Part shown: one piece after another, positions 55,962 to 64,000 of the stretch
How the letters are laid out: every line of letters begins with the position of its first letter
Position numbering within the stretch: position 1 is the stretch's first letter
Origin: an uncultured Chloroflexia bacterium
GTDB taxonomy: Bacteria; Chloroflexota; Chloroflexia; Thermomicrobiales; UBA6265
Direction of reading: 5' to 3'
DNA length: 64,000 nucleotides
Assembly (NCBI GenBank): GCA_963777865.1
Contig: CAVZSG010000004.1
Coordinates: 115,650 to 179,649 of the forward strand
The notes under the pieces: model-generated
What the model was told of the DNA's origin: nothing
Databases searched by the model: none
The model's input: the letters and a program-made list of their open reading frames with translations, nothing else
Translations under genes and position numbers: made by a program

Positions 55962-56050
55962 CGGGGTTCTGGGTTTCAGGTTTTGGGTTTTGGCAGTGGG
56001 CGGGACTGGCGACTTTCCTCCTAATCCCTCAATCCCTTCGGCTAATCCCT
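55962..56050. repeat. Degenerate 7-8 bp tandem repeats (GGGTTTT-like; AATCCCTC-like)
   Basis: 'gggttct gggtttc aggtttt gggtttt' and 'aatccctc aatccctt...aatccct' in the serA-fdhF spacer. Confidence 0.55.
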
Positions 56051-58280
56051 ATTTCGCGGCTTCTGATCGGCGGCTGCGACCAACCGGGCCTGGGCTGGGG
56101 GGAGGGAGACGCGGTAGGCGGTTTCGACGCCCGGGATGGTCTTGATCTCGTCCAGCGCGGCCTGCGGAATTTCGTCGTCGACATTCAGCACCATCAGGGC
56201 CTCGCCGCCGCGATGATGGCGACCGACCTGCATGCCGGCGATGTTGACCCGGTAGAGCCCCATGATCGTGCCGACCCGACCGACGATGCCCGGCACGTCG
56301 CGGTGATGCGTGATCAGGACGTCGCCGGCCAGTGCGCGATCGAGGGCGAAGCGATCGACCTCGACGATTCCGGCGGTTCTCCGATCCCACATGACGCGGA
56401 CGTGATGCGACGTTTCGCCGAGCACTTCGAACGAGAACGACGGCTCGACATCGGCTTCATTGGCACCGGTCAGGGCGGTCAGACTGATGCCCAGCTCCTC
56501 GGCGACGATCCGGGCGTTGACCGAGGTGGTGAAGCGACCGGTCCAGCGGTTGATCGCTTCGGAGAGGGCGGCGCTGGTGACGTGCTCGATGACATCGGCC
56601 GGGACGATGCCGCGGACCGTGACCCGGAAGTCGGTCGGAATCTCCGGCTGCACGACCGTCAGCAAGTGACCGGCAGCTGCGGCAACCGAGGTCAGGCGCT
56701 GGAGATCGGGAGCGAGCAACGAGGCGGGCGGCAGATTGACCGCGTTCGGGACCGACTCGCCGGCCAGCGCGGCCAGGGTTGTGGTGCTGATCATCTCGCC
56801 GACGTTGGCCAGCGCTTCGGCACTCGAGCCACCGGTGTGCGGGGTCAGGACGACGTTCGGCAGCGAGAAAAGCGGGCTCTCGGTGGTCGGTTCGAACGGG
56901 AAGACATCGACTCCGGCGCCGCGCAGGTGACCCTTGGCGACCGCTTCGGCCAGCGCATCCTGATCGACGACATCGCCGCGCGCCGCATTGATGACGATCG
57001 AGCCCGGTTTGATGAGCGCGATCCGTTCGGCATCGAGCATGTGCCGGGTCTGATCGGTGCTCGGGCAGTGATAGGTGACGACATCGGCGCGGGCGAGCAG
57101 ATCCAGGTAATCGACCTGCTCGACGCCGAGTTCATCGAATCGCTCCGGGCGGATGAACGGGTCGTAGGCGATGACGTGCATCTCGAACGCCTTGAGCCGG
57201 GTTGCGACGACCGTGCCGACCCGACCGAGACCGACGATGCCGACGGTTTTGCCGGCCAGATCGATCGGTTTGATCTTCTTGCGTTCCCAGCGACCGGCCC
57301 GGGTGCCTTCATCGGCGATGTTGATCTGGCGGGTGACGGCGAGGAGCAGGGCGATGGTGTGCTCGCCGGCCGAGATCCGGTTCGCTCCCGGCGCATTCAG
57401 GACCAGCACGCCGCGCCGGGTGGCGGCATCGAGATCGACGTTATCGACCCCTACTCCGGCCCGGGCGACGACCCGCAGTTTCGGTCCGGCGGCGAGGACT
57501 TCCTCGGTCACCTGGGTCTCGCTGCGGACGACCAGGGCATCGGCATCGGGCAGAACGGCGAGCAGGGCGGGCAGATTGGTGCCATCGACATCGGTCAGTT
57601 CGGCGGCCGAGGCGAGATGGGCGCGGGCACCGGGATCGATCTGATCGGCGATGACGATCCGCGGTCGGTTGCGCATCAGGTTGCTCAGTCGCTCGTTCTC
57701 GCGCTTGAGCTCGTCGAGCCGGTAGATGATCGCCATCAGGCTGGAGACCGGCCAGATCTTTTCGTGCGGTTCGAAGGCCGGGGTCGATTCGGTCGTGATC
57801 AGAAACGTCGTGATACCGGCTTTGGCGTAATTGACCGCGTGGCGAACACTGTCCTCGACCGCGAATGTGCAGCCCTCGGCGCCGGCGACTTCGGCCTTGT
57901 CGTCCGAGAAGAGCATCTTGACGTCCGGGAAGCCGTGGCGACGGAGCCAGGCCGCGGTCATCGCGCGCGATTCCTCGTTGCGGGCGGTCAGGATGCGCAC
58001 GTGCTCCATGCCGAGCAGTTCGATGATCCGGGCGATGAATTCCTGGGCGTCGGCGCCTGGCATCAGGTGCGAGGCCGGTCCGTCGTCGGAATAGACCCAC
58101 TCGCGGACCGCCATCGGCACATTGAGACCGGCCGAATCGATAAATGCCGACTCGGGCAGATCCATGCCGAAACGTGGAATTGGCGGCCACGGCAAGCGGA
58201 CGCGGATGCTCGGTCAGGACGCCATCGAGATCGATGGCGATATTGAGCGAATGTGGCGACGAAAGCGGCGTCGACGACAT
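56042..58280 (-). CDS. serA: D-3-phosphoglycerate dehydrogenase with N-terminal HAD (5'-nucleotidase/YqfW-like) domain; frameshift near 58170
   Basis: HAD motifs 'IAIDLDGV', 'ILTAR', 'DDKA', 'VEDS'; then 'VRSETQV', 'ARAGVGVDNVD', 'GLGRVG', 'INAARG', 'DVFPFEP', 'TPHTGGSS' and ACT domain 'HRDVPGIVGRVG'. Confidence 0.9.
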
Positions 58281-58358
58281 GGGGTCGGGTATCTCCGGGT
58301 GCAATCAGTCAGAAGGGGGACGCGCCGGTGGGTCCGTGCTGAGAGTATAGGTTGGTAA

Positions 58359-58423
58359 GTCGAGGAGTCGAGTAGGCGAGAAGTCGAGGAGAGACGAAAA
58401 GACGAGGAGACGATCAGACGAAT
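58359..58423 (+). repeat. Degenerate 8-bp tandem repeat (AGTCGAGG/AGACGA..)
   Basis: agtcgagg agtcgagt aggcgaga agtcgagg ag agacgaaa agacgagg agacgatc agacgaat. Confidence 0.75.
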
Positions 58424-58554
58424 CGGCAGAGATGCCCAGCGGGCGCACCTGTAGATAGTGGTCGAGATTGCGCTTCGATGAGATTACCTGGAACGACGCC
58501 GGGACTGATCAGTTCGGGGAGCGGGATTGGGGTTTTGATGGGGTGGTTTGGGGT

Positions 58555-58700
58555 TGCTCTGTTGCGGACGGGGTGGGGTCCGGGAAACGGGGTGGTGCTG
58601 ACTAACGAGGCGGGTTCCCTCGTGGCCCTGTACGGAAGGCTGGTCCAACACAAATTTTGCACTGCCCAGGCCCGCCCTCCATGTCATGGGTGCCACTTGG
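58555..58700 (-). ncRNA. Candidate ncRNA, copy A
   Basis: Directly downstream of a consensus promoter; shares CAAGTGGCAC, GCGGGCCTGGGCAG, the CGAGG..CCTCGTTA hairpin and CCGTT..CCGGACCCC with copy B; no convincing ORF. Confidence 0.45.
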
Positions 58701-58704
58701 GCGC

Positions 58705-58753
58705 ATAGTAGCACATGTGTTCTGTTCTTGTCAAGAGTCGTAACTATCGTTCG
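58705..58753 (-). promoter_or_regulatory. Sigma70 promoter with LexA-type box (copy A)
   Basis: Minus strand TTGACA (58734-58729)-N18-TACTAT (58710-58705); AGAAC-ACAT-GTGCT at 58723-58710; second weaker CGAAC-GATA-GTTAC at 58753-58740. Confidence 0.7.
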
Positions 58754-58952
58754 CAATGAAGCTACCATCGAAGGCTATTCAGATCAATTCCGACGGGGGT
58801 GAAGACCCCAATCGACCGGGAGTATCCTGGTGCAAACGGTCAGGTTGGATGCTCTTTGGTGGGTCCACCCTTGAGCGGCCGGAATCCAATGCGGTCTGCC
58901 CTGCCGAAACGCTCAATCGAAAGGACCTGGGTCACAATCGTCTCATCCCATG

Positions 58953-60294
58953 TCATGGGATGCTGATTGTCGTCTCACAGTCGTCTAGAAGGATGTCGGA
59001 GCGACTGTCTGTACCGTCGCCACCGTTGCACTTATCGTTCGGGCCCGGGCCCCCGCCTAGCCAATCCGATCCGTCGCGGCCAAAAAGGGTGTCAGTACCT
59101 CCCTCGCCATCAAGAGAGAGTCGGCTCCTGCTCCGCCATAGATGCCATCGTCCCCCGCGCCGCCGTAGATGACATTTACGGACAGGTCCGGAATCGAGAT
59201 TGAACCAAAGCCGCCAATGGCAGGTCGTTCCCATCATCGCCATAAATCGTGTCGGCATATGACAAGCCGGTGATTGCTGGGCCGCTCTCAAAGTCACCCA
59301 GTATGTAGTCGTCGCCGGGTCCGCCATAGATGAGGTCATTCCCGGGATCCGGCGCTGATCTGATCGTTTCCGCTTCCGCCGGTGATGGTGTCGTTGCCCG
59401 GGTCCGCATCGCCTGCGATCGTTGGGGGCAGGAGACCGATCAGATCGGCTTCCGGTCCGCCATTCTCTATGTGGTTGCCAGGCCCGCCCAGGAGCAGATC
59501 GCTACCTGAGCTAGCGGAGAGGTAGTCATGACCGGGGCCACCCCACAGGCGGTCCGATCCGGATTCTCCGTACATCCGGTCGTTGCCGTTTTCGCCTTCG
59601 ACTGTGTCGTCGCCGCTGCCAGCGACCAGCTTGTCGTCACCATCTCCTCCAACCACGACATCGTTGCCATCGCCCGCCGAGAGCGAATCGTTGCCGACCT
59701 CTCCGGAAAGGGAGTCATTCCCATTCTGACCGTAGATGCGATCGCGGCCGCCCCCTCCGCTGGCGGCATCCCATCCATCTCCGAGGGTGATCTTGTCGTC
59801 ACCTTGTCCGCCGAATTCCCGGTCGTCGCCAGTTCCGCCGGCCAGCGAATCGTTGCCACCTTCTCCATAGATGTCGTCATTGCCGCCGCCACCACGAAGT
59901 TTGTCGTTCCCCTGCCGCCGTAGAGCTTGTCGTTTCCGTTGTCAGCGGTAACGTCGTCGTTGCCGTTTCCTGCATAGACCGTGCCTTCGCTTGATGTGAT
60001 GTCGATTACATCCGAGCCGTCACCGGAATCGATCTTGACTGTGCCGACTCCGGTGACGATTCGATCATTACCGGTACCCGAACAGATCAGATCATTGCCC
60101 CCTTTGCCATTAATGACATCCGGACCGGCCGAACCGACAATCACGTCCGATCCGGTTGTTCCGGAAAAGGTTCCTGATCCAGTGATCGTGGCTGATTTGC
60201 CGAAGCAGCTCGCAGCAAGGACAGGTTGGGCAGAGGAAGTAAAGAGCACAAATAGCAGGGGCGCGAGTACGGAAAGGCGTTGAAGACGGATCAT
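58953..60294 (-). CDS. Secreted calcium-binding RTX-repeat protein 3 (several frameshifts)
   Basis: AGGAG RBS, signal peptide ending 'PVLA', 'SCFGKSATITGSG...NDLICSG', GGxGxD repeats, end 'GPGPNDKCNGGDGTDSRSDILLDDCETTISIP'. Confidence 0.85.
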
Positions 60295-60352
60295 CGGCAA
60301 ATCTCCTCAGGTACGCAGCCAGAGACCAGTGGCTGAAATGTCGGTTCGCTCT

Positions 60353-61690
60353 TCATGGGATGCTCACAACCGTCTCACAGTCGTCCAGTAGGATGTCAGA
60401 CCGAGAATCCGTGCCTTCTCCGCCGTCACATACGTCGTTGGGGCCAGGACCGCCGCCGAGCCAATCACTGCCTTGAAATCCGTAAAGCGAATCGGTGTCC
60501 GCTTCGCCGTAAAGGGCATCATTGCCACCAGCACCGAACAGCAGATCATTTCCGCTCCCACCAGACAAGACATTGGCGGATTGATCATAGTTTCCAGAGT
60601 AAAGCGTACCGCCAAGAATGACGTCATCTCCGTCTCCGCCATTTATTTCATCGCCAGAGTCGTACAGTGATCCGTTGACGCCATCTCTGAACTCGCCCAT
60701 CAGGTAGTGTCGTTCCCCCCTGCCCGTAAATGACGTCTGCTCCGGTACCACCGGCGATGTAGTCGTCTCCAGAGCCGCCGTCGATCAGATCGTTACCGGG
60801 ATCCTGGTCGTTGGTAGCGTCGTCCTATAGGCACCAATCTGATCGTCTCCGGACCCGCCATTCTGGATGTCGTTACCCGGTCGTCCATAAAGGAGGTCGC
60901 CACCATCGTTACCCGACAGATAGTCGTCCCCGTTGCCTCCATCGAGCAAATCACTCCCGCCCTCTCCATAGAGACGATCGTTACCCGCAAATCCATACAT
61001 CTTGTCATTTCCGGAACCAGCAACCAGCTTATCGTCTCCACCTCCTCCGTCTGAGAAGTCTTCCCCACTCCCTGCTGAAACTGAATCGTTCTCCGATCCA
61101 CCAAAAATATGGTCATCGCCGTCCTGACCGTACATCCGGTCGCGGCCTGCATCTCCACTGGCTTGGTCGTTCCCCAAACCGAGCGTTATCTTGTCATCTC
61201 CCTCACGGCCGATAAGCGTATCGTTGCCATCACCTCCGGCCAGGGAATCCGACCCGCTCCCTCCGTCGATTGTGTCATTGCCCTCGCCACCGCGAACCTT
61301 GTCATTGCCGTTGCCTCCGAACAACTGGTCAACGAAATCTCCACCGGTGAGATCGTCGTTGCCGTCACGTCCGTAGATGGAGTTGGTGCCAGTGCCTGCG
61401 ACGACAATGTCCGAACCTGGCCCGGCGTCTATGGTTGCGTTACCGATACCGGTAGTAATCCGGTCGTTGCCGCTACCACCGCAAATGAGATCGTTTCCTC
61501 CCCCGCCACTTATCACATCCGGTCCTGGCGATCCCCAAATTACGTCCGCACCAGGTCCACCAGAAATTGCTCCTGAACCAGTGATTGTCGGAATCTCGCC
61601 AAAGCATGAATCTGCCGCGCGCGTCGCGGGCGGTGGCGACGCGACGATGAGCAATGCTACGGACGCGAGAAACATGTTGACATGTCGCAC
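60353..61690 (-). CDS. Secreted calcium-binding RTX-repeat protein 4 (frameshifted)
   Basis: Signal peptide ending 'ATRA', 'SCFGEIPTITGSG...NDLICGG', GGxGxD repeats, end 'GPGPNDVCDGGEGTDSRSDILLDDCETVVSIP'. Confidence 0.85.
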
Positions 61691-62079
61691 GGTGGTGACC
61701 TCCATCAGCTGGCACTAGTCGAACAGAAGCCCTTTCGAGGTGCTGCGCTGGAGCCTTTCACCGACTTCTGACACGCTCAAATTAGGGTGATGATGTTGCC
61801 AGCGGTATCCGTAAGGTTACGTATTCCGTTGCCGATCGGCTGAATCAAGACCAGCTGTCGGCAGAAGGATCCGACCTGTGAACAAGCAATGAAGGCAACA
61901 AGGCACGAGAAAGGGGCATTCCCACAAGCGGCATTGCCTGGCTCCACTGGCCGGGCGCGCAATTGTCTTTGCGTTAGTTTCAGTAGGGATTTATGACAAT
62001 CGAACCCGCATCGACCAATCATCAACCGCACGAGGACCGATTCGTCCCCGCCCCCGACCAAATCTACGGATGCGAGAGG

Positions 62080-62105
62080 GCGGGCTGATTGCCACGTGCC
62101 CCTAC
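62080..62105 (-). repeat. GTAG-type REP-like imperfect palindrome
   Basis: Minus strand GTAGGGGCACGTGGCAATCAGCCCGC: GTAG tag followed by a short GGGC..GCCC stem. Confidence 0.35.
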
Positions 62106-62152
62106 GAGTCGCGACGTGGCTCATTGCCATCAACCAACAATCTCATTACCGA

Positions 62153-62198
62153 CGAACGTGGTACGCCCATTGACACAATAGAACACGTGTACTACTCT
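62153..62198 (+). promoter_or_regulatory. Sigma70 promoter with LexA-type box (copy B)
   Basis: TTGACA (62170-62175)-N17-TACTCT (62193-62198); AGAAC-ACGT-GTACT at 62180-62193 inside the spacer. Confidence 0.75.
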
Positions 62199-62204
62199 GT
62201 ACGT

Positions 62205-62380
62205 CAAGTGGCACGTTCGGTATGAGCGCGGGCCTGGGCAGCGGTAGTATCGTCCCGAGGTTGTTCCTCGTTAATGCCACTGCCGGTGTCAGGACCGGCC
62301 ATCCGGGGGCTGAAAGACGCACAATTCCTCCCTGTCCACACGAACGGTCGCTCCGTTCCGATTCCGGGACCCCGAGAGCA
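62205..62380 (+). ncRNA. Candidate ncRNA, copy B
   Basis: Begins about 7 nt after the -10 box; AGTGGCA (62207-13) can pair with TGCCACT (62275-81); internal CGAGG/CCTCG hairpin; downstream GCCGGT/ACCGGC hairpin; motifs shared with copy A. Confidence 0.5.
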
Positions 62381-62387
62381 GACAAAA

Positions 62388-62452
62388 TAGTTGTCAGTTT
62401 GCGGTTGTCAGTTGGCAGACAAAAGAGTTTCTGGTTTCTAGTTTCTCGTTTC
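62388..62452 (+). repeat. Heptamer tandem repeats (GTTGTCA-like; GTTTCTN)
   Basis: 'gttgtca gtttgcg gttgtca gttggca' and 'gtttctg gtttcta gtttctc gtttccc'; GTTGTCAGT recurs twice at 62870-62893. Confidence 0.7.
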
Positions 62453-62486
62453 CCGCCTGCAAACGACGCACCCAACAGCGCGATCG

Positions 62487-62555
62487 CCCCTCTCCGCCAA
62501 ACCGAATCTCTATCCGCAGTCACCGTTGATTGGCGGAGAGGGGTTGGGGGTGAGG
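62487..62555 (-). repeat. REP-like palindrome of the CCTCACCCC..CCCTCTCC/GGAGAGGG type
   Basis: Perfect 14-bp inverted repeat CCCCTCTCCGCCAA (62487-62500)/TTGGCGGAGAGGGG (62530-62543) followed by TTGGGGGTGAGG. Confidence 0.65.
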
Positions 62556-62625
62556 TCGTGCAGTGCGCTGCGTGGCACGGGTTTCGTTCATTCCCGAAGT
62601 GCCCAGGTCGCATTGCCATGCGACG

Positions 62626-62853
62626 CTACGGGGTGTTTTCGGATTTGCGGCGTTTCTTCCCTTTCGAGCTTCCGCCCAGGGTGCCGAGGAAGGGGGAGCC
62701 GGCGCCGAAGAGGAAGCCGAGGTCGTACCAGCTTCCGGCGCGTTGCGGGTCGTAGACCGGTTGGCCGTCGAAGATGCCGATGATGTGTCCGCCCAGGACG
62801 ATCCAGCCGGTGATTCCGTTCCAAAGTCCCCAAAGCAGGTCGTGCCACCACAT
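62626..62853 (-). CDS. Small membrane protein
   Basis: AGGAG RBS before ATG at 62853; 'LWGLWNGIT...VYD...WYDLGFLFG' and a basic tail; 75 aa. Confidence 0.75.
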   Translation of the reverse strand: MWWHDLLWGLWNGITGWIVLGGHIIGIFDGQPVYDPQRAGSWYDLGFLFGAGSPFLGTLGGSSKGKKRRKSENTP

Positions 62854-62997
62854 ATGTCGCTTCGCTCCTGTTGTCAGTTCGCGAGTTGTCAGTGTGTCCG
62901 AGGGTAGATTTCCGTTTCCAGCCATCCGGTTGCCGACCGAGGTAATCGGGGTTTTCACCCCGACACTACGTTGTGGACGCTGTCTCGAACTGCTCGC

Positions 62998-63700
62998 CTA
63001 CTTCAGGCTGAAGGGCGGGTAGACGTCGATCACGAGGGTGCCGGTGTAGGCGATTACGTCGGCTTGTCCCAGCGCATTGACGCCCTCAACGAATTCGAAC
63101 ATGGCCGCGCGGTAGCGTCCGGTGAAGACGATCGGCGAACCAGGCACCGATCACGACGACGAGTCTGCGGCCACGCAATAGTCGACGAAGAAGAGCGCGA
63201 TGAAATGCGCGGCATGGCCAGCGAATTCCACTTGTACGAGTTCGGCGTTGTACCGGTTACAGGTCGTTGTCGGCACGTCCGGATAGGCGAAGTCGAGATG
63301 GACCGATTGCTGTTCATCGTCGTTCGAGGGGTACTTGTCGTCCATGCAGGGCGACGTAGGCCACGACGCCGGTTGGTAAAGCGTTGCAGCTCGAGGTTCC
63401 AGTCGAACCACCACCGCTCGGGTACTTCTGCCGCAAGACGATCATCATCGCGGTCGCGGCGACCAGGATCGCCACCGGTCCACCCGGCGCTTGCGACCCG
63501 TCGGCTCAGCAGTTGCCTTGTCCGTGCATGGACCGCACGCCGTCGGGCCAGGTCGGAGCCGCCATCACCGCCCCCGCGATGATCAGGATCGGGATGGCGA
63601 CGATCCGGGCGAATCAAAGTCGACCACCGATTAAGCGGGCGATGCCAGGCATAGTCGACGGAGAATTCGCAGTGGATACGGTCGTTCGGTATTGCCTGAG
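62998..63700 (-). CDS. DUF4389 domain membrane protein (heavily frameshifted; start uncertain)
   Basis: Across frames: 'FSVDY..RPLNRWSTL..IVAIPILII', 'WWFDWNLELQRFTNR', 'DDKYPSNDDEQQSVHLDFAYPDV', end 'AYTGTLVIDVYPPFSLK*'. Confidence 0.78.
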
Positions 63701-63820
63701 CGACCCTTGCCAGACGATTCCGCGGATTGGACCGGTAGCCGGGGTCGCAATCCGTCGGACCAGGTGATCGTCATCGGTTCCGTTCGGAGTCTCGCATGTG
63801 GCAATGCCGCGACAAGTCAT

Positions 63821-63855
63821 AAAAGCGGAGCCCCTCGCCTTGCGGCTAGGGGCTC
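63821..63855 (-). terminator. Intrinsic terminator
   Basis: GAGCCCCT/AGGGGCTC stem followed on the minus strand by CGCTTTT. Confidence 0.65.
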
Positions 63856-63863
63856 GTTAGTTA

Positions 63864-63896
63864 TTCGTCTCTTCGACTTCTCGACTCCTCGACTTC
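63864..63896 (-). repeat. Second copy of the 8-bp AGTCGAGG-type tandem repeat (opposite orientation)
   Basis: Minus strand: agtcgagg agtcgaga agtcgaag agacgaat. Confidence 0.7.
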
Positions 63897-64000
63897 TAGC
63901 TCAGCGAGAACGGTGGGTACTTGTCGGTGACGAGGGTGCCGGCGTAGGCGATGACGCGGTTGTTCCAGCGGAGGACGCCTTCGACGAAGTTGAACATCCA
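63896..64000 (-). CDS. DUF4389 domain protein, 3' end (runs off the window)
   Basis: My translation of the minus strand: 'WMFNFVEGVLRWNNRVIAYAGTLVTDKYPPFSLS*'. Confidence 0.85.
   Translation of the reverse strand, partial: WMFNFVEGVLRWNNRVIAYAGTLVTDKYPPFSLS

Follow-up and report, generated by a model that had tools for sequence, protein, structure and literature searches.

The box GAAC-N4-GTTC is recognised by the SOS repressor LexA in Gram-positive bacteria as well as in Dehalococcoides, and the regulons under its control, which usually comprise only a few dozen genes per bacterium, are usually viewed as sets of protein genes. Two kinds of multicopy non-coding RNA are of relevance for the locus described below. 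Sibling small RNAs (sRNAs) such as Qrr1-5, LhrC1-7 and OmrA/B form families of 2-7 members, which conserve mainly the seed and the terminator, and bacterial Y RNAs, the partners of the Ro protein (Rsr), are structured, sometimes present in several copies and raised after UV irradiation or DNA damage. RNAs directly under LexA are rare, as stated in the excerpted text of a 2024 report on DinR of Klebsiella pneumoniae, a LexA-controlled and Hfq-dependent RNA which is a single fragment of the 3'-untranslated region (3'-UTR) of the dinI mRNA and has ftsZ as its target (PMC10907235). Excerpts of two further studies describe binding of LexA to small-RNA genes in Mycobacterium tuberculosis (PMC3381160) and the 6C RNA of Actinobacteria, which is structured, C-rich and SOS-linked, but single-copy, driven by SigA/SigB and devoid of a LexA box (PMC5014011). 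The locus analysed here is part of a stretch of 64,000 nucleotides (termed the window throughout) of contig CAVZSG010000004.1 from an uncultured Chloroflexia bacterium of the order Thermomicrobiales. It consists of two homologous units, copy A on the minus strand and copy B on the plus strand, which are read with moderate confidence as genes of a multigene family whose product is a free-standing, structured RNA, non-coding and about 125-180 nt long, each gene being placed under a LexA operator and released by DNA damage. Judged from its sequence, this is a new family of stand-alone structured RNAs that is probably induced in the SOS response.

Like DinR and the LexA-bound genes of M. tuberculosis, as far as these are portrayed in the excerpts cited above, the family would place a non-coding RNA under the SOS repressor. 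Unlike DinR as described there, it comprises 8 to about 38 free-standing genes with operators of their own, and neither a target nor, in the source genome (74% complete), an Hfq gene was found. With Qrr1-5, LhrC1-7 and OmrA/B the family has in common that several paralogous genes per genome share a conserved segment and a common regulator, but it differs from these siblings in having up to about 38 members, identity over the whole length within a genome and no visible terminator. The features known of 6C RNA from its excerpted description, namely structure, C-richness and a link to the SOS response, are shared as well; however, 6C is included in Rfam and the Rfam searches made here returned no 6C match. 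Y RNA genes adjoin rsr, whereas the present genes are dispersed. Moreover, a TROVE/Ro gene (PF05731) was found neither in the source genome nor in five high-copy relatives (89-96% complete), while the control search found the TROVE gene of Deinococcus; with no TROVE gene and no Rfam match to Y RNA, a Y RNA/Ro system was ruled out. Multicopy genes of the tRNA type resemble the family in being dispersed, with a near-identical mature part and unrelated flanks, a pattern which argues for selection or gene conversion acting on the whole RNA. Unlike tRNA genes, however, the copies gave no ARAGORN match (no tRNA or tmRNA at 57000-64000 of the window), their fold and motifs are unrelated, and a stress repressor would take the place of housekeeping control. 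What is new is the RNA family itself together with its unusual copy number, whereas its regulation is of a known kind.

Copies A and B align pairwise over the promoter and over the blocks CAAGTGGCAC and GCGGGCCTGGGCAG. Further blocks common to both are a CGAGG-loop-CCTCG hairpin followed by TTA and, more loosely conserved, the 3' series CCGTT..CCGG(G)ACCCC..AGAGCA. An initial annotation of the window had proposed two homologous, promoter-driven units without an open reading frame (ORF), which is borne out by this alignment, by the shared blocks and by matches to R1, a covariance model of the family, at 62206-62297 in copy B (E 2.6e-13) and at 58698-58610 in copy A (E 1.1e-9). These are the only two R1 matches in the window.

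In the promoter of copy A (minus strand) the -35 hexamer TTGACA (58734-58729) is followed by AGAAC, by AGAACACATGTGC, which holds the LexA-type box GAACACATGTGC (GAAC-N4-GTGC, 58722-58711), by the -10 hexamer TACTAT (58710-58705), by six bases and finally by AAGTGGCAC, which starts at 58698. In copy B (plus strand) the corresponding order is TTGACA (62170..62175), CAAT, AGAACACGTGTAC holding the box GAACACGTGTAC (GAAC-N4-GTAC, 62181..62192), TACTCT (62193..62198), seven bases and AAGTGGCAC from 62206. Both promoters had been regarded as consensus promoters. This description fits copy A, for which a promoter scan reported TTGACA-18-TACTAT (58734..58705; 10 of 12 positions matched, TG ahead of the -10 element), but not copy B, the -10 element of which agrees with TATAAT at 3 of 6 positions (A at position 2 and T at position 6 being kept) and is absent from the consensus promoter scan. 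In both copies the box is situated between -35 and -10 and abuts the -10 element, resulting in an overlap with the core promoter. Each box deviates from GAAC-N4-GTTC by one mismatch, because the right half-site reads GTGC or GTAC instead of GTTC.

The predicted A-type RNA of copy A extends from 58698 to about 58555 (minus strand), its 5' end being deduced from the promoter and the onset of conservation and its approximate 3' end from the point where the three A-type copies diverge. For copy B, the ends of the predicted B-type RNA of 176 nt (62206..62381, plus strand) were drawn from the conservation profile of the five B-type copies, at the points where their identity goes up and drops again. 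Within copy B the R1 alignment places the hairpin hp1 (CGUUCG-GUA-UGAGCG, with G-U pairs) at 62214..62228. It is followed at 62228..62241 by the invariant block GCGGGCCUGGGCAG, which is apparent from invariant columns and from the genomic count of its 14-mer, and at 62256..62270 by the hairpin hp2 (CGAGG-UUGUU-CCUCG), for which reading of the sequence, covariation in the family and the R1 alignment agree. In copy A (minus strand) the invariant block is located at 58662..58675, its last 12 bases being unchanged in 76 of 76 aligned copies, and hp2 (CGAGG-GAACCCG-CCUCG) at 58606..58622, as assigned from the sequence and from the family-wide covariation of this helix; model R1 set its hp2 columns upstream of this hairpin.

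That the element is multicopy, as had been suggested, is confirmed by the source genome (G000; 3.44 Mb, 26 contigs), in which eight copies were found. Five are B-type with 87-100% identity over about 215 nt (contig and position C4:177789, C2:91601, C13:308468, C10:122312 and C14:89558) and three are A-type (C4:174311, C6:90351 and C2:196566). All exact occurrences of the 14-mer GCGGGCCTGGGCAG in this genome, 8 in number, fall within family copies. With the 5' part as query, BLAST detected the element in 8 of 36 genomes from the taxonomic family to which the source organism belongs, and in none of 24 from four sister families. An exact pattern was present in 25 of 107 family genomes, compared with 0-1 matches per genome for the reversed-pattern control; four pattern matches outside the family (in families f3 and f4) are without promoter or AAG start and are therefore read as chance or coding matches.

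Model R1, which was built from 76 distinct 5' cores, extended this picture to 32 of 108 genomes of the taxonomic family (f1) and to 16 of its 32 genera, with 1 to 38 copies per genome. Three of the positive genomes (G008, G011 and G177) are unpublished, and without these the count is 29 of 105 by subtraction. The highest numbers, 38 in G172, 37 in G035, 35 in G130 and 34 in G132, are rough, as no more than 40 candidates per genome were scored. No genome was positive among 132 sampled from fourteen other families of the class. Searching public genome contigs with the pattern GGCAC-N8-22-GGGCCTGGGCAG gave at least 120 stretches, mostly chance matches in GC-rich genomes; among the matches listed, seven stretches combine an AAGC start with an upstream LexA-type box, and these come from six metagenome-assembled genomes (MAGs) labelled Thermomicrobiales or Chloroflexia.

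In agreement with the initial annotation, which could assign the element to no known family, Rfam (15) gave no match at E <= 1 for positions 57500-64000 of the window. For 20 loci of other subfamilies only sub-threshold matches were obtained, consisting of miRNA-type hairpins and of Acido-Lenti-1, which scored 22.9 bits against a gathering score of 37 and, by coordinate arithmetic, falls on the strand opposite to the RNA gene. No account of a LexA-linked RNA in Thermomicrobia or Chloroflexi was found in a literature search that left supplementary files outside its range.

Throughout the 76 distinct 5' cores, positions A1, A2, G3 and G5-C9 (AAG-GGCAC) and the 12-mer GGGCCTGGGCAG are invariant. 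Beside the 5' AAG-GGCAC, the element GGGCCUGGGCAG is shared unchanged by 76 of 76 aligned copies. The stretch between the invariant 5' end and the 12-mer and the stretch after the 12-mer vary, with base pairs preserved. Taken jointly, the helices hp1, P3 and hp2 have 75.7% of their cells paired, compared with 66.1% in column shuffles (none of 500 reached the observed value). Sliding the 3' partners by 1-3 columns reduced pairing to 38-51%, and the covariation score of 0.309 compares with at most 0.122 for slid partners. This second control weighs most, since related sequences can surpass shuffles without having any structure; alignment and helix annotation were made from the same sequences that were scored. 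In hp1, both-sided changes are found in 4 of 6 pairs, one of which occurs as AU in 42 copies, GC in 18, CG in 7 and UA in 4, and in hp2 all four pairs display both-sided changes. A covariance model as envisaged in the initial annotation could thus be obtained, with two covarying helices. The helices contain numerous G-U pairs, which are compatible with the strand downstream of the promoter but not with the opposite strand. RNAalifold applied to the mixed alignment recovered hp1 and part of P3 only, and the alignment of 18 sequences from one subfamily points to a fold of two domains that includes a hairpin of variable length. Candidate long-range helices were noted by eye (5' GYGG with 3' CCRC, GGGCAG with a distal CUGYYC, and the P3 loop with a 3' GAUC motif).

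The extent of the RNA is best seen in genomes with several copies. In the well-assembled genome G173, identity among 11 copies is about 1.0 over some 128 nt, from AAGCGGCAC to CCCACCGCC, and at background level outside. The five B-type copies of the source genome display the same picture across 176 nt, with one variable internal loop. Within one genome the RNA is about 98% identical while the promoter spacers are scrambled, and such a combination of identical RNA with drifted spacers and flanks points to old dispersed genes under selection or gene conversion rather than to recent transposition of the whole unit. This bears on the notion that the copies might represent a selfish mobile repeat, MITE-like or SINE-like, which carries a promoter incidentally and serves no function in the cell. 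A copy number that is high and varies from 1 to 38, the location of many copies at contig ends in fragmented assemblies and one copy of the source genome directly beside a tRNA gene would fit such a repeat. Besides the conservation pattern, however, no reverse transcriptase (RVT_1) was found in the source genome and the five high-copy genomes, and no transposase or integrase beside the 8 source-genome and 11 G173 copies. Reading of the flanks, without a dedicated search, revealed no terminal inverted repeats or target-site duplications. Viral contigs (IMG/VR) contained 62 stretches with the above pattern, none with promoter or box, which are chance matches, and copy B had no BLASTN match in phage or plasmid collections. 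Altogether, a mobile repeat appears highly improbable.

Control by LexA was assessed on 78 distinct promoters of the family. A perfect GAAC-N4-GTTC box is present in 39, a box with one mismatch in 19 and one with two or three mismatches in 20. Among 20,000 control windows from the same loci, 4.6% contain a box with at most one mismatch, a conservative control because some of these windows overlap promoters. Where the box has no mismatch or a single one (58 promoters), its distance upstream of the RNA start, counted from the first base of the box, is 23-29 nt in 54 cases, 13 nt in three and 54 nt in one; in a few subfamilies the box is shifted onto the start site or against the -35 element and still retained. 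In the upstream regions of the G173 copies only TTGACA, the AGAAC-ATAT-GTTC box and the -10 element are conserved, with scrambled spacer bases in between. Similarly, most spacer positions differ among the five B-type promoters of the source genome, while AGAAC is kept in five and GTAC in four of them. Conservation of -35, box and -10 amid drifting spacers indicates that selection acts separately on -35 element, operator and -10 element.

The lexA gene of the source genome was identified at G000:C14:100275-100907 (185 bits). Its own promoter reads TTGACA-C-GAACACGTGTTC-GTTCG-TATTCT, a design found likewise in six relatives, and perfect boxes also precede the gene of a Y-family polymerase (IMS) and ruvB in this genome. 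The LexA boxes proposed in the initial annotation hence stand as far as their position between -35 and -10, their perfect form in half of the family promoters and their match to lexA operators are concerned, whereas the two boxes in the window carry one mismatch each. Based on these sequence patterns, LexA control of the family appears well supported; for copies A and B it is plausible, the case being weaker than for the family. As lexA is near-universal (102 of 108 genomes of the taxonomic family), its presence cannot be correlated with that of the RNA. A recA gene was not found in the 74%-complete source assembly.

A draft SOS regulon of the source genome is formed by the sites at C14:100200, C5:202590, C9:6671, C2:215141 and C3:563575 (loci L019, L314, L315, L329 and L330), which comprise the perfect boxes of lexA, the IMS gene and ruvB as well as variant AGAAC-N4-GTRC-TA promoters ahead of a glyoxalase/bleomycin-resistance-family gene and an HD/dGTPase-like gene. 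At C3:620991 (L317), a perfect CGAACGTGTGTTCG box stands behind TTGACA, and the sequence downstream contains no ORF that reaches 90 amino acids; the site may represent another LexA-controlled small gene or RNA.

None of the eight operators in the source genome is perfect: seven have a GT[A/G]C right half-site and one is decayed further. This observation lends itself to a different explanation, according to which the operators (GTGC, GTAC, GCCC) have decayed and the RNAs are constitutive or under another regulator of AGAAC-N4-GTRC-TA, outside the LexA regulon. In addition to the absence of a GTTC right half-site from all eight copies, a distinct class of motif is hinted at by three further promoter-like sites in the same genome, where the variant box AGAAC-N4-GTRC with an abutting TA precedes a gene of the glyoxalase/bleomycin-resistance family, an HD/dGTPase-like gene and another ORF. 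However, about three extra 15-base variant sites are expected by chance in 6.9 Mb, counting both strands (author's estimate). The variant is one position off the LexA box and placed like the perfect boxes of homologous promoters, including two of the three copies read in the sister species G002 of the same genus, which carry perfect AGAAC-N4-GTTCT boxes, the third having a single mismatch. Moreover, the retention of AGAAC and GTAC in the B-type promoters amid diverged spacers speaks against decay. Regulation outside the LexA regulon is therefore considered quite unlikely.

According to the favoured explanation of a LexA-gated RNA family, each gene has a sigma-70-type promoter of its own, with a strong -35 element and with a LexA-type operator that covers the core promoter in the stretch separating -35 and -10. 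In the undamaged cell LexA would block these promoters. Upon DNA damage, RecA-stimulated self-cleavage of LexA would free eight promoters at once in the present bacterium and up to about 38 in its relatives, and the cell would then fill with the RNA in a burst. Transcription, LexA binding, induction and action in trans are what we infer from the sequences. With eight LexA-type promoters here and up to about 38 in relatives attributable to one RNA family, and given the usual size of LexA regulons, the family may make up a large share of the regulon promoters in the high-copy relatives. If damage-induced, it would point to a branch of the SOS response that is made of RNA, in a phylum about which little is known. 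Furthermore, operators that are perfect in some genera, off by one position here and decayed in genus g19 provide a comparative set for the retention and loss of such sites, and the family supplies a new structured RNA, marked by invariant junctions and covarying helices, whose function is amenable to biochemistry without a cultured host.

The genes adjacent to the copies are housekeeping genes unrelated to each other and include those for RTX-repeat, serA-like, luciferase-like, GNAT, NTP-transferase, RelA/SpoT, beta-lactamase-family, RNase J, phosphoketolase and MetRS proteins, ABC transporters and others. At four of five decidable loci of the source genome the next gene lies on the same strand, about 140-400 nt further on, namely a serA-like gene after copy A and luciferase-like, GNAT and NTP-transferase genes at the others. 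A same-strand gene is likewise present at 4-5 of 11 G173 loci, one of them encoding an ABC ATPase with a zinc-finger motif. Together with the lack of a visible terminator, this arrangement would be compatible with dispersed SOS-inducible promoter cassettes or cis-acting leaders serving the downstream gene. Such a role is nevertheless very unlikely, considering that the downstream genes have nothing in common, that the next Pfam-supported gene is convergent at five of 11 G173 loci and one of five decidable loci of the source genome, and that conservation in G173 ends sharply about 128 nt past the start, well before any gene. It had been considered that homologues might consistently turn out to be 5' UTRs of a protein gene; they are not consistently 5' UTRs of one gene. 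A cis-regulatory leader or riboswitch was likewise rejected, the copies sharing no downstream gene or pathway on the same strand. The serA gene that had been noted downstream of copy A contains 2-Hacid_dh and ACT domains and is indeed serA-like.

At one G173 locus (L311, G173:C5:760200-765200) the RNA gene is situated about 400 nt upstream of a large same-strand ABC-type ATPase gene with a zinc-finger motif. This ATPase could be UvrA, the product of a classic SOS gene.

An ATG in front of the invariant block, which opens the reading AGLGS in both A and B, could be taken as the start of a small protein or type I toxin, encoded in sense or antisense direction. However, a 1-nt indel just past this ATG shifts the frame between copy B and the copy at C2:91601, and the C14 copy has ACG instead. 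Over 83 copies the longest forward ORF is distributed over all three frames relative to the invariant block (42, 26 and 11 copies, with none in 4), and the distance spanned by hp1 ranges between 13 and 18 nt. On the opposite strand, 41 of 77 copies lack the candidate antisense ATG, and in the others it is spread over the three frames (15, 14 and 7 copies). A coding function has hence next to no probability. The type I toxin-antitoxin or leader-like element that had been suggested as an option finds no support, since no reading frame is conserved on either strand.

A further possibility is that the genes encode SOS-induced sibling sRNAs which act by base-pairing, the invariant 5' sequences or C-rich stretches such as UUCCUCCCUGUCC in B-type copies pairing with ribosome-binding sites of target mRNAs. 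In favour of this, every gene forms a unit with a promoter of its own and no ORF, the conserved 5' end is typical of a seed region, and CCUCC-containing C-rich stretches are kept in the B-type and G002 copies; the nearest precedent is provided by the LexA-controlled DinR, which represses ftsZ in Klebsiella according to the excerpt mentioned above (PMC10907235). However, elsewhere in the genome the invariant 14-mer finds its complement at no more than three sites, each with one mismatch and none evidently connected with the start of a gene, and a genome target search with the complements of the conserved motifs returned only the antisense strands of the copies themselves and a few scattered sites. 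In a crude duplex test with the ftsZ leader, whole-length duplexes were no better than background in three of four pairs, the background of the fourth pair being unmatched. In addition, no Hfq gene (in the genome at its given completeness) and no terminator hairpin were found, and the paralogues are conserved over their whole length and not in a seed alone. Base-pairing siblings are regarded as unlikely, yet as a serious rival of the main reading.

Conservation of the whole molecule, invariant bases at helix junctions, a high, tRNA-like gene dosage and the lack of a long complementary target instead lead us to guess that the RNA works via its fold, with a protein partner or as a decoy, or as another structure-dependent RNA needed in bulk, which seems likelier than antisense pairing. 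Only tentatively can a bolder proposal be put forward, namely that a new class of structured RNA is the largest single output of the SOS regulon in this uncultured Thermomicrobiales family, dozens of LexA-gated genes flooding the damaged cell with an RNA that would act by its three-dimensional fold (as ribonucleoprotein scaffold, protein decoy, ligand binder or ribozyme) and not by antisense pairing.

Several points weigh against the reading of copies A and B as LexA-controlled genes of a structured RNA. With regard to regulation, changes in the GAAC/GTTC half-sites reportedly weaken binding of LexA in Bacillus subtilis, and with none of the eight source-genome operators perfect, repression may be leaky here. 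In genus g19 (G132 and G020), most boxes even have two or three mismatches and the left half-sites are mostly decayed, yet the lexA operator is canonical. With regard to the transcript, a search for intrinsic terminators found none after copy A or B, so that the 3' ends rest on conservation, and the same-strand genes at four of five loci of the source genome make read-through effects possible. A search of public sequencing runs with positions 58300-62700 of the window matched no RNA run, only two sediment-metagenome DNA runs with small word shares. As for the structure, helix P3 is plausible, though not proven, because its 5' strand coincides with the invariant block and it consequently exhibits one-sided changes only (G-C to G-U). 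The predicted energies of folding do not set either copy apart from shuffled sequence (z = -0.88 for copy B and z = +0.56 for copy A), and the overall fold differs among the subfamilies. Moreover, the genomes are without exception metagenome bins, contaminated to 1-7%, those that are related cannot be counted as independent samples, and the proposed mode of action is a conjecture.

In genus g19 (loci L267, L274, L277, L278 and L281 of G132 and G020) a second conserved module, GUGGGAGCGCGCGUGCGGGUCCCGUCGGC..GCCGAA, is located 100-150 nt past the RNA core and shows covariation in its terminal hairpin. In this genus the RNA may be longer or paired with a second element. In the source genome, the B-type copy on contig C14 (L005, at about 89,800) starts some 60 nt after a tRNA-like sequence ending in ...GGTTCGAATCC...CCA; the two are separated by a GC-rich hairpin with a T run, which resembles a tRNA terminator.

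Within the window, the two outward-facing RNA genes flank two paralogous genes with RTX calcium-binding repeats (HemolysinCabind) at 58953-60300 and 60353-61705 (minus strand), which have similar 3' ends. Each of them is split over two or more overlapping ORFs, suggesting frameshifts or assembly errors. The serA-like gene (56042-58304, minus strand) has an N-terminal extension of about 170 amino acids, and its 5' end overlaps a 287-aa ORF without Pfam match, which may reflect a fusion or a frameshift.

Degenerate 7-8-nt tandem repeats (GTCGAGGA-like, GTTGTCAGTT and GTTTCTN) occupy the intergenic positions 58345-58420, 62385-62450 and 63860-63905, and similar low-complexity runs are found 3' of the RNA genes at the G173 loci L305, L309 and L310. 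At 62490-62556 of the window a REP-like hairpin, CCCCTCTCC..GGAGAGGGG, is followed by GGGGGTGAGG. The same hairpin was observed 100-250 nt downstream of RNA genes in several genera (L024, L031 and L039 in G016, L238 in G132, L278-L280 in G020); as it is missing at other RNA copies, it is probably a separate repeat.

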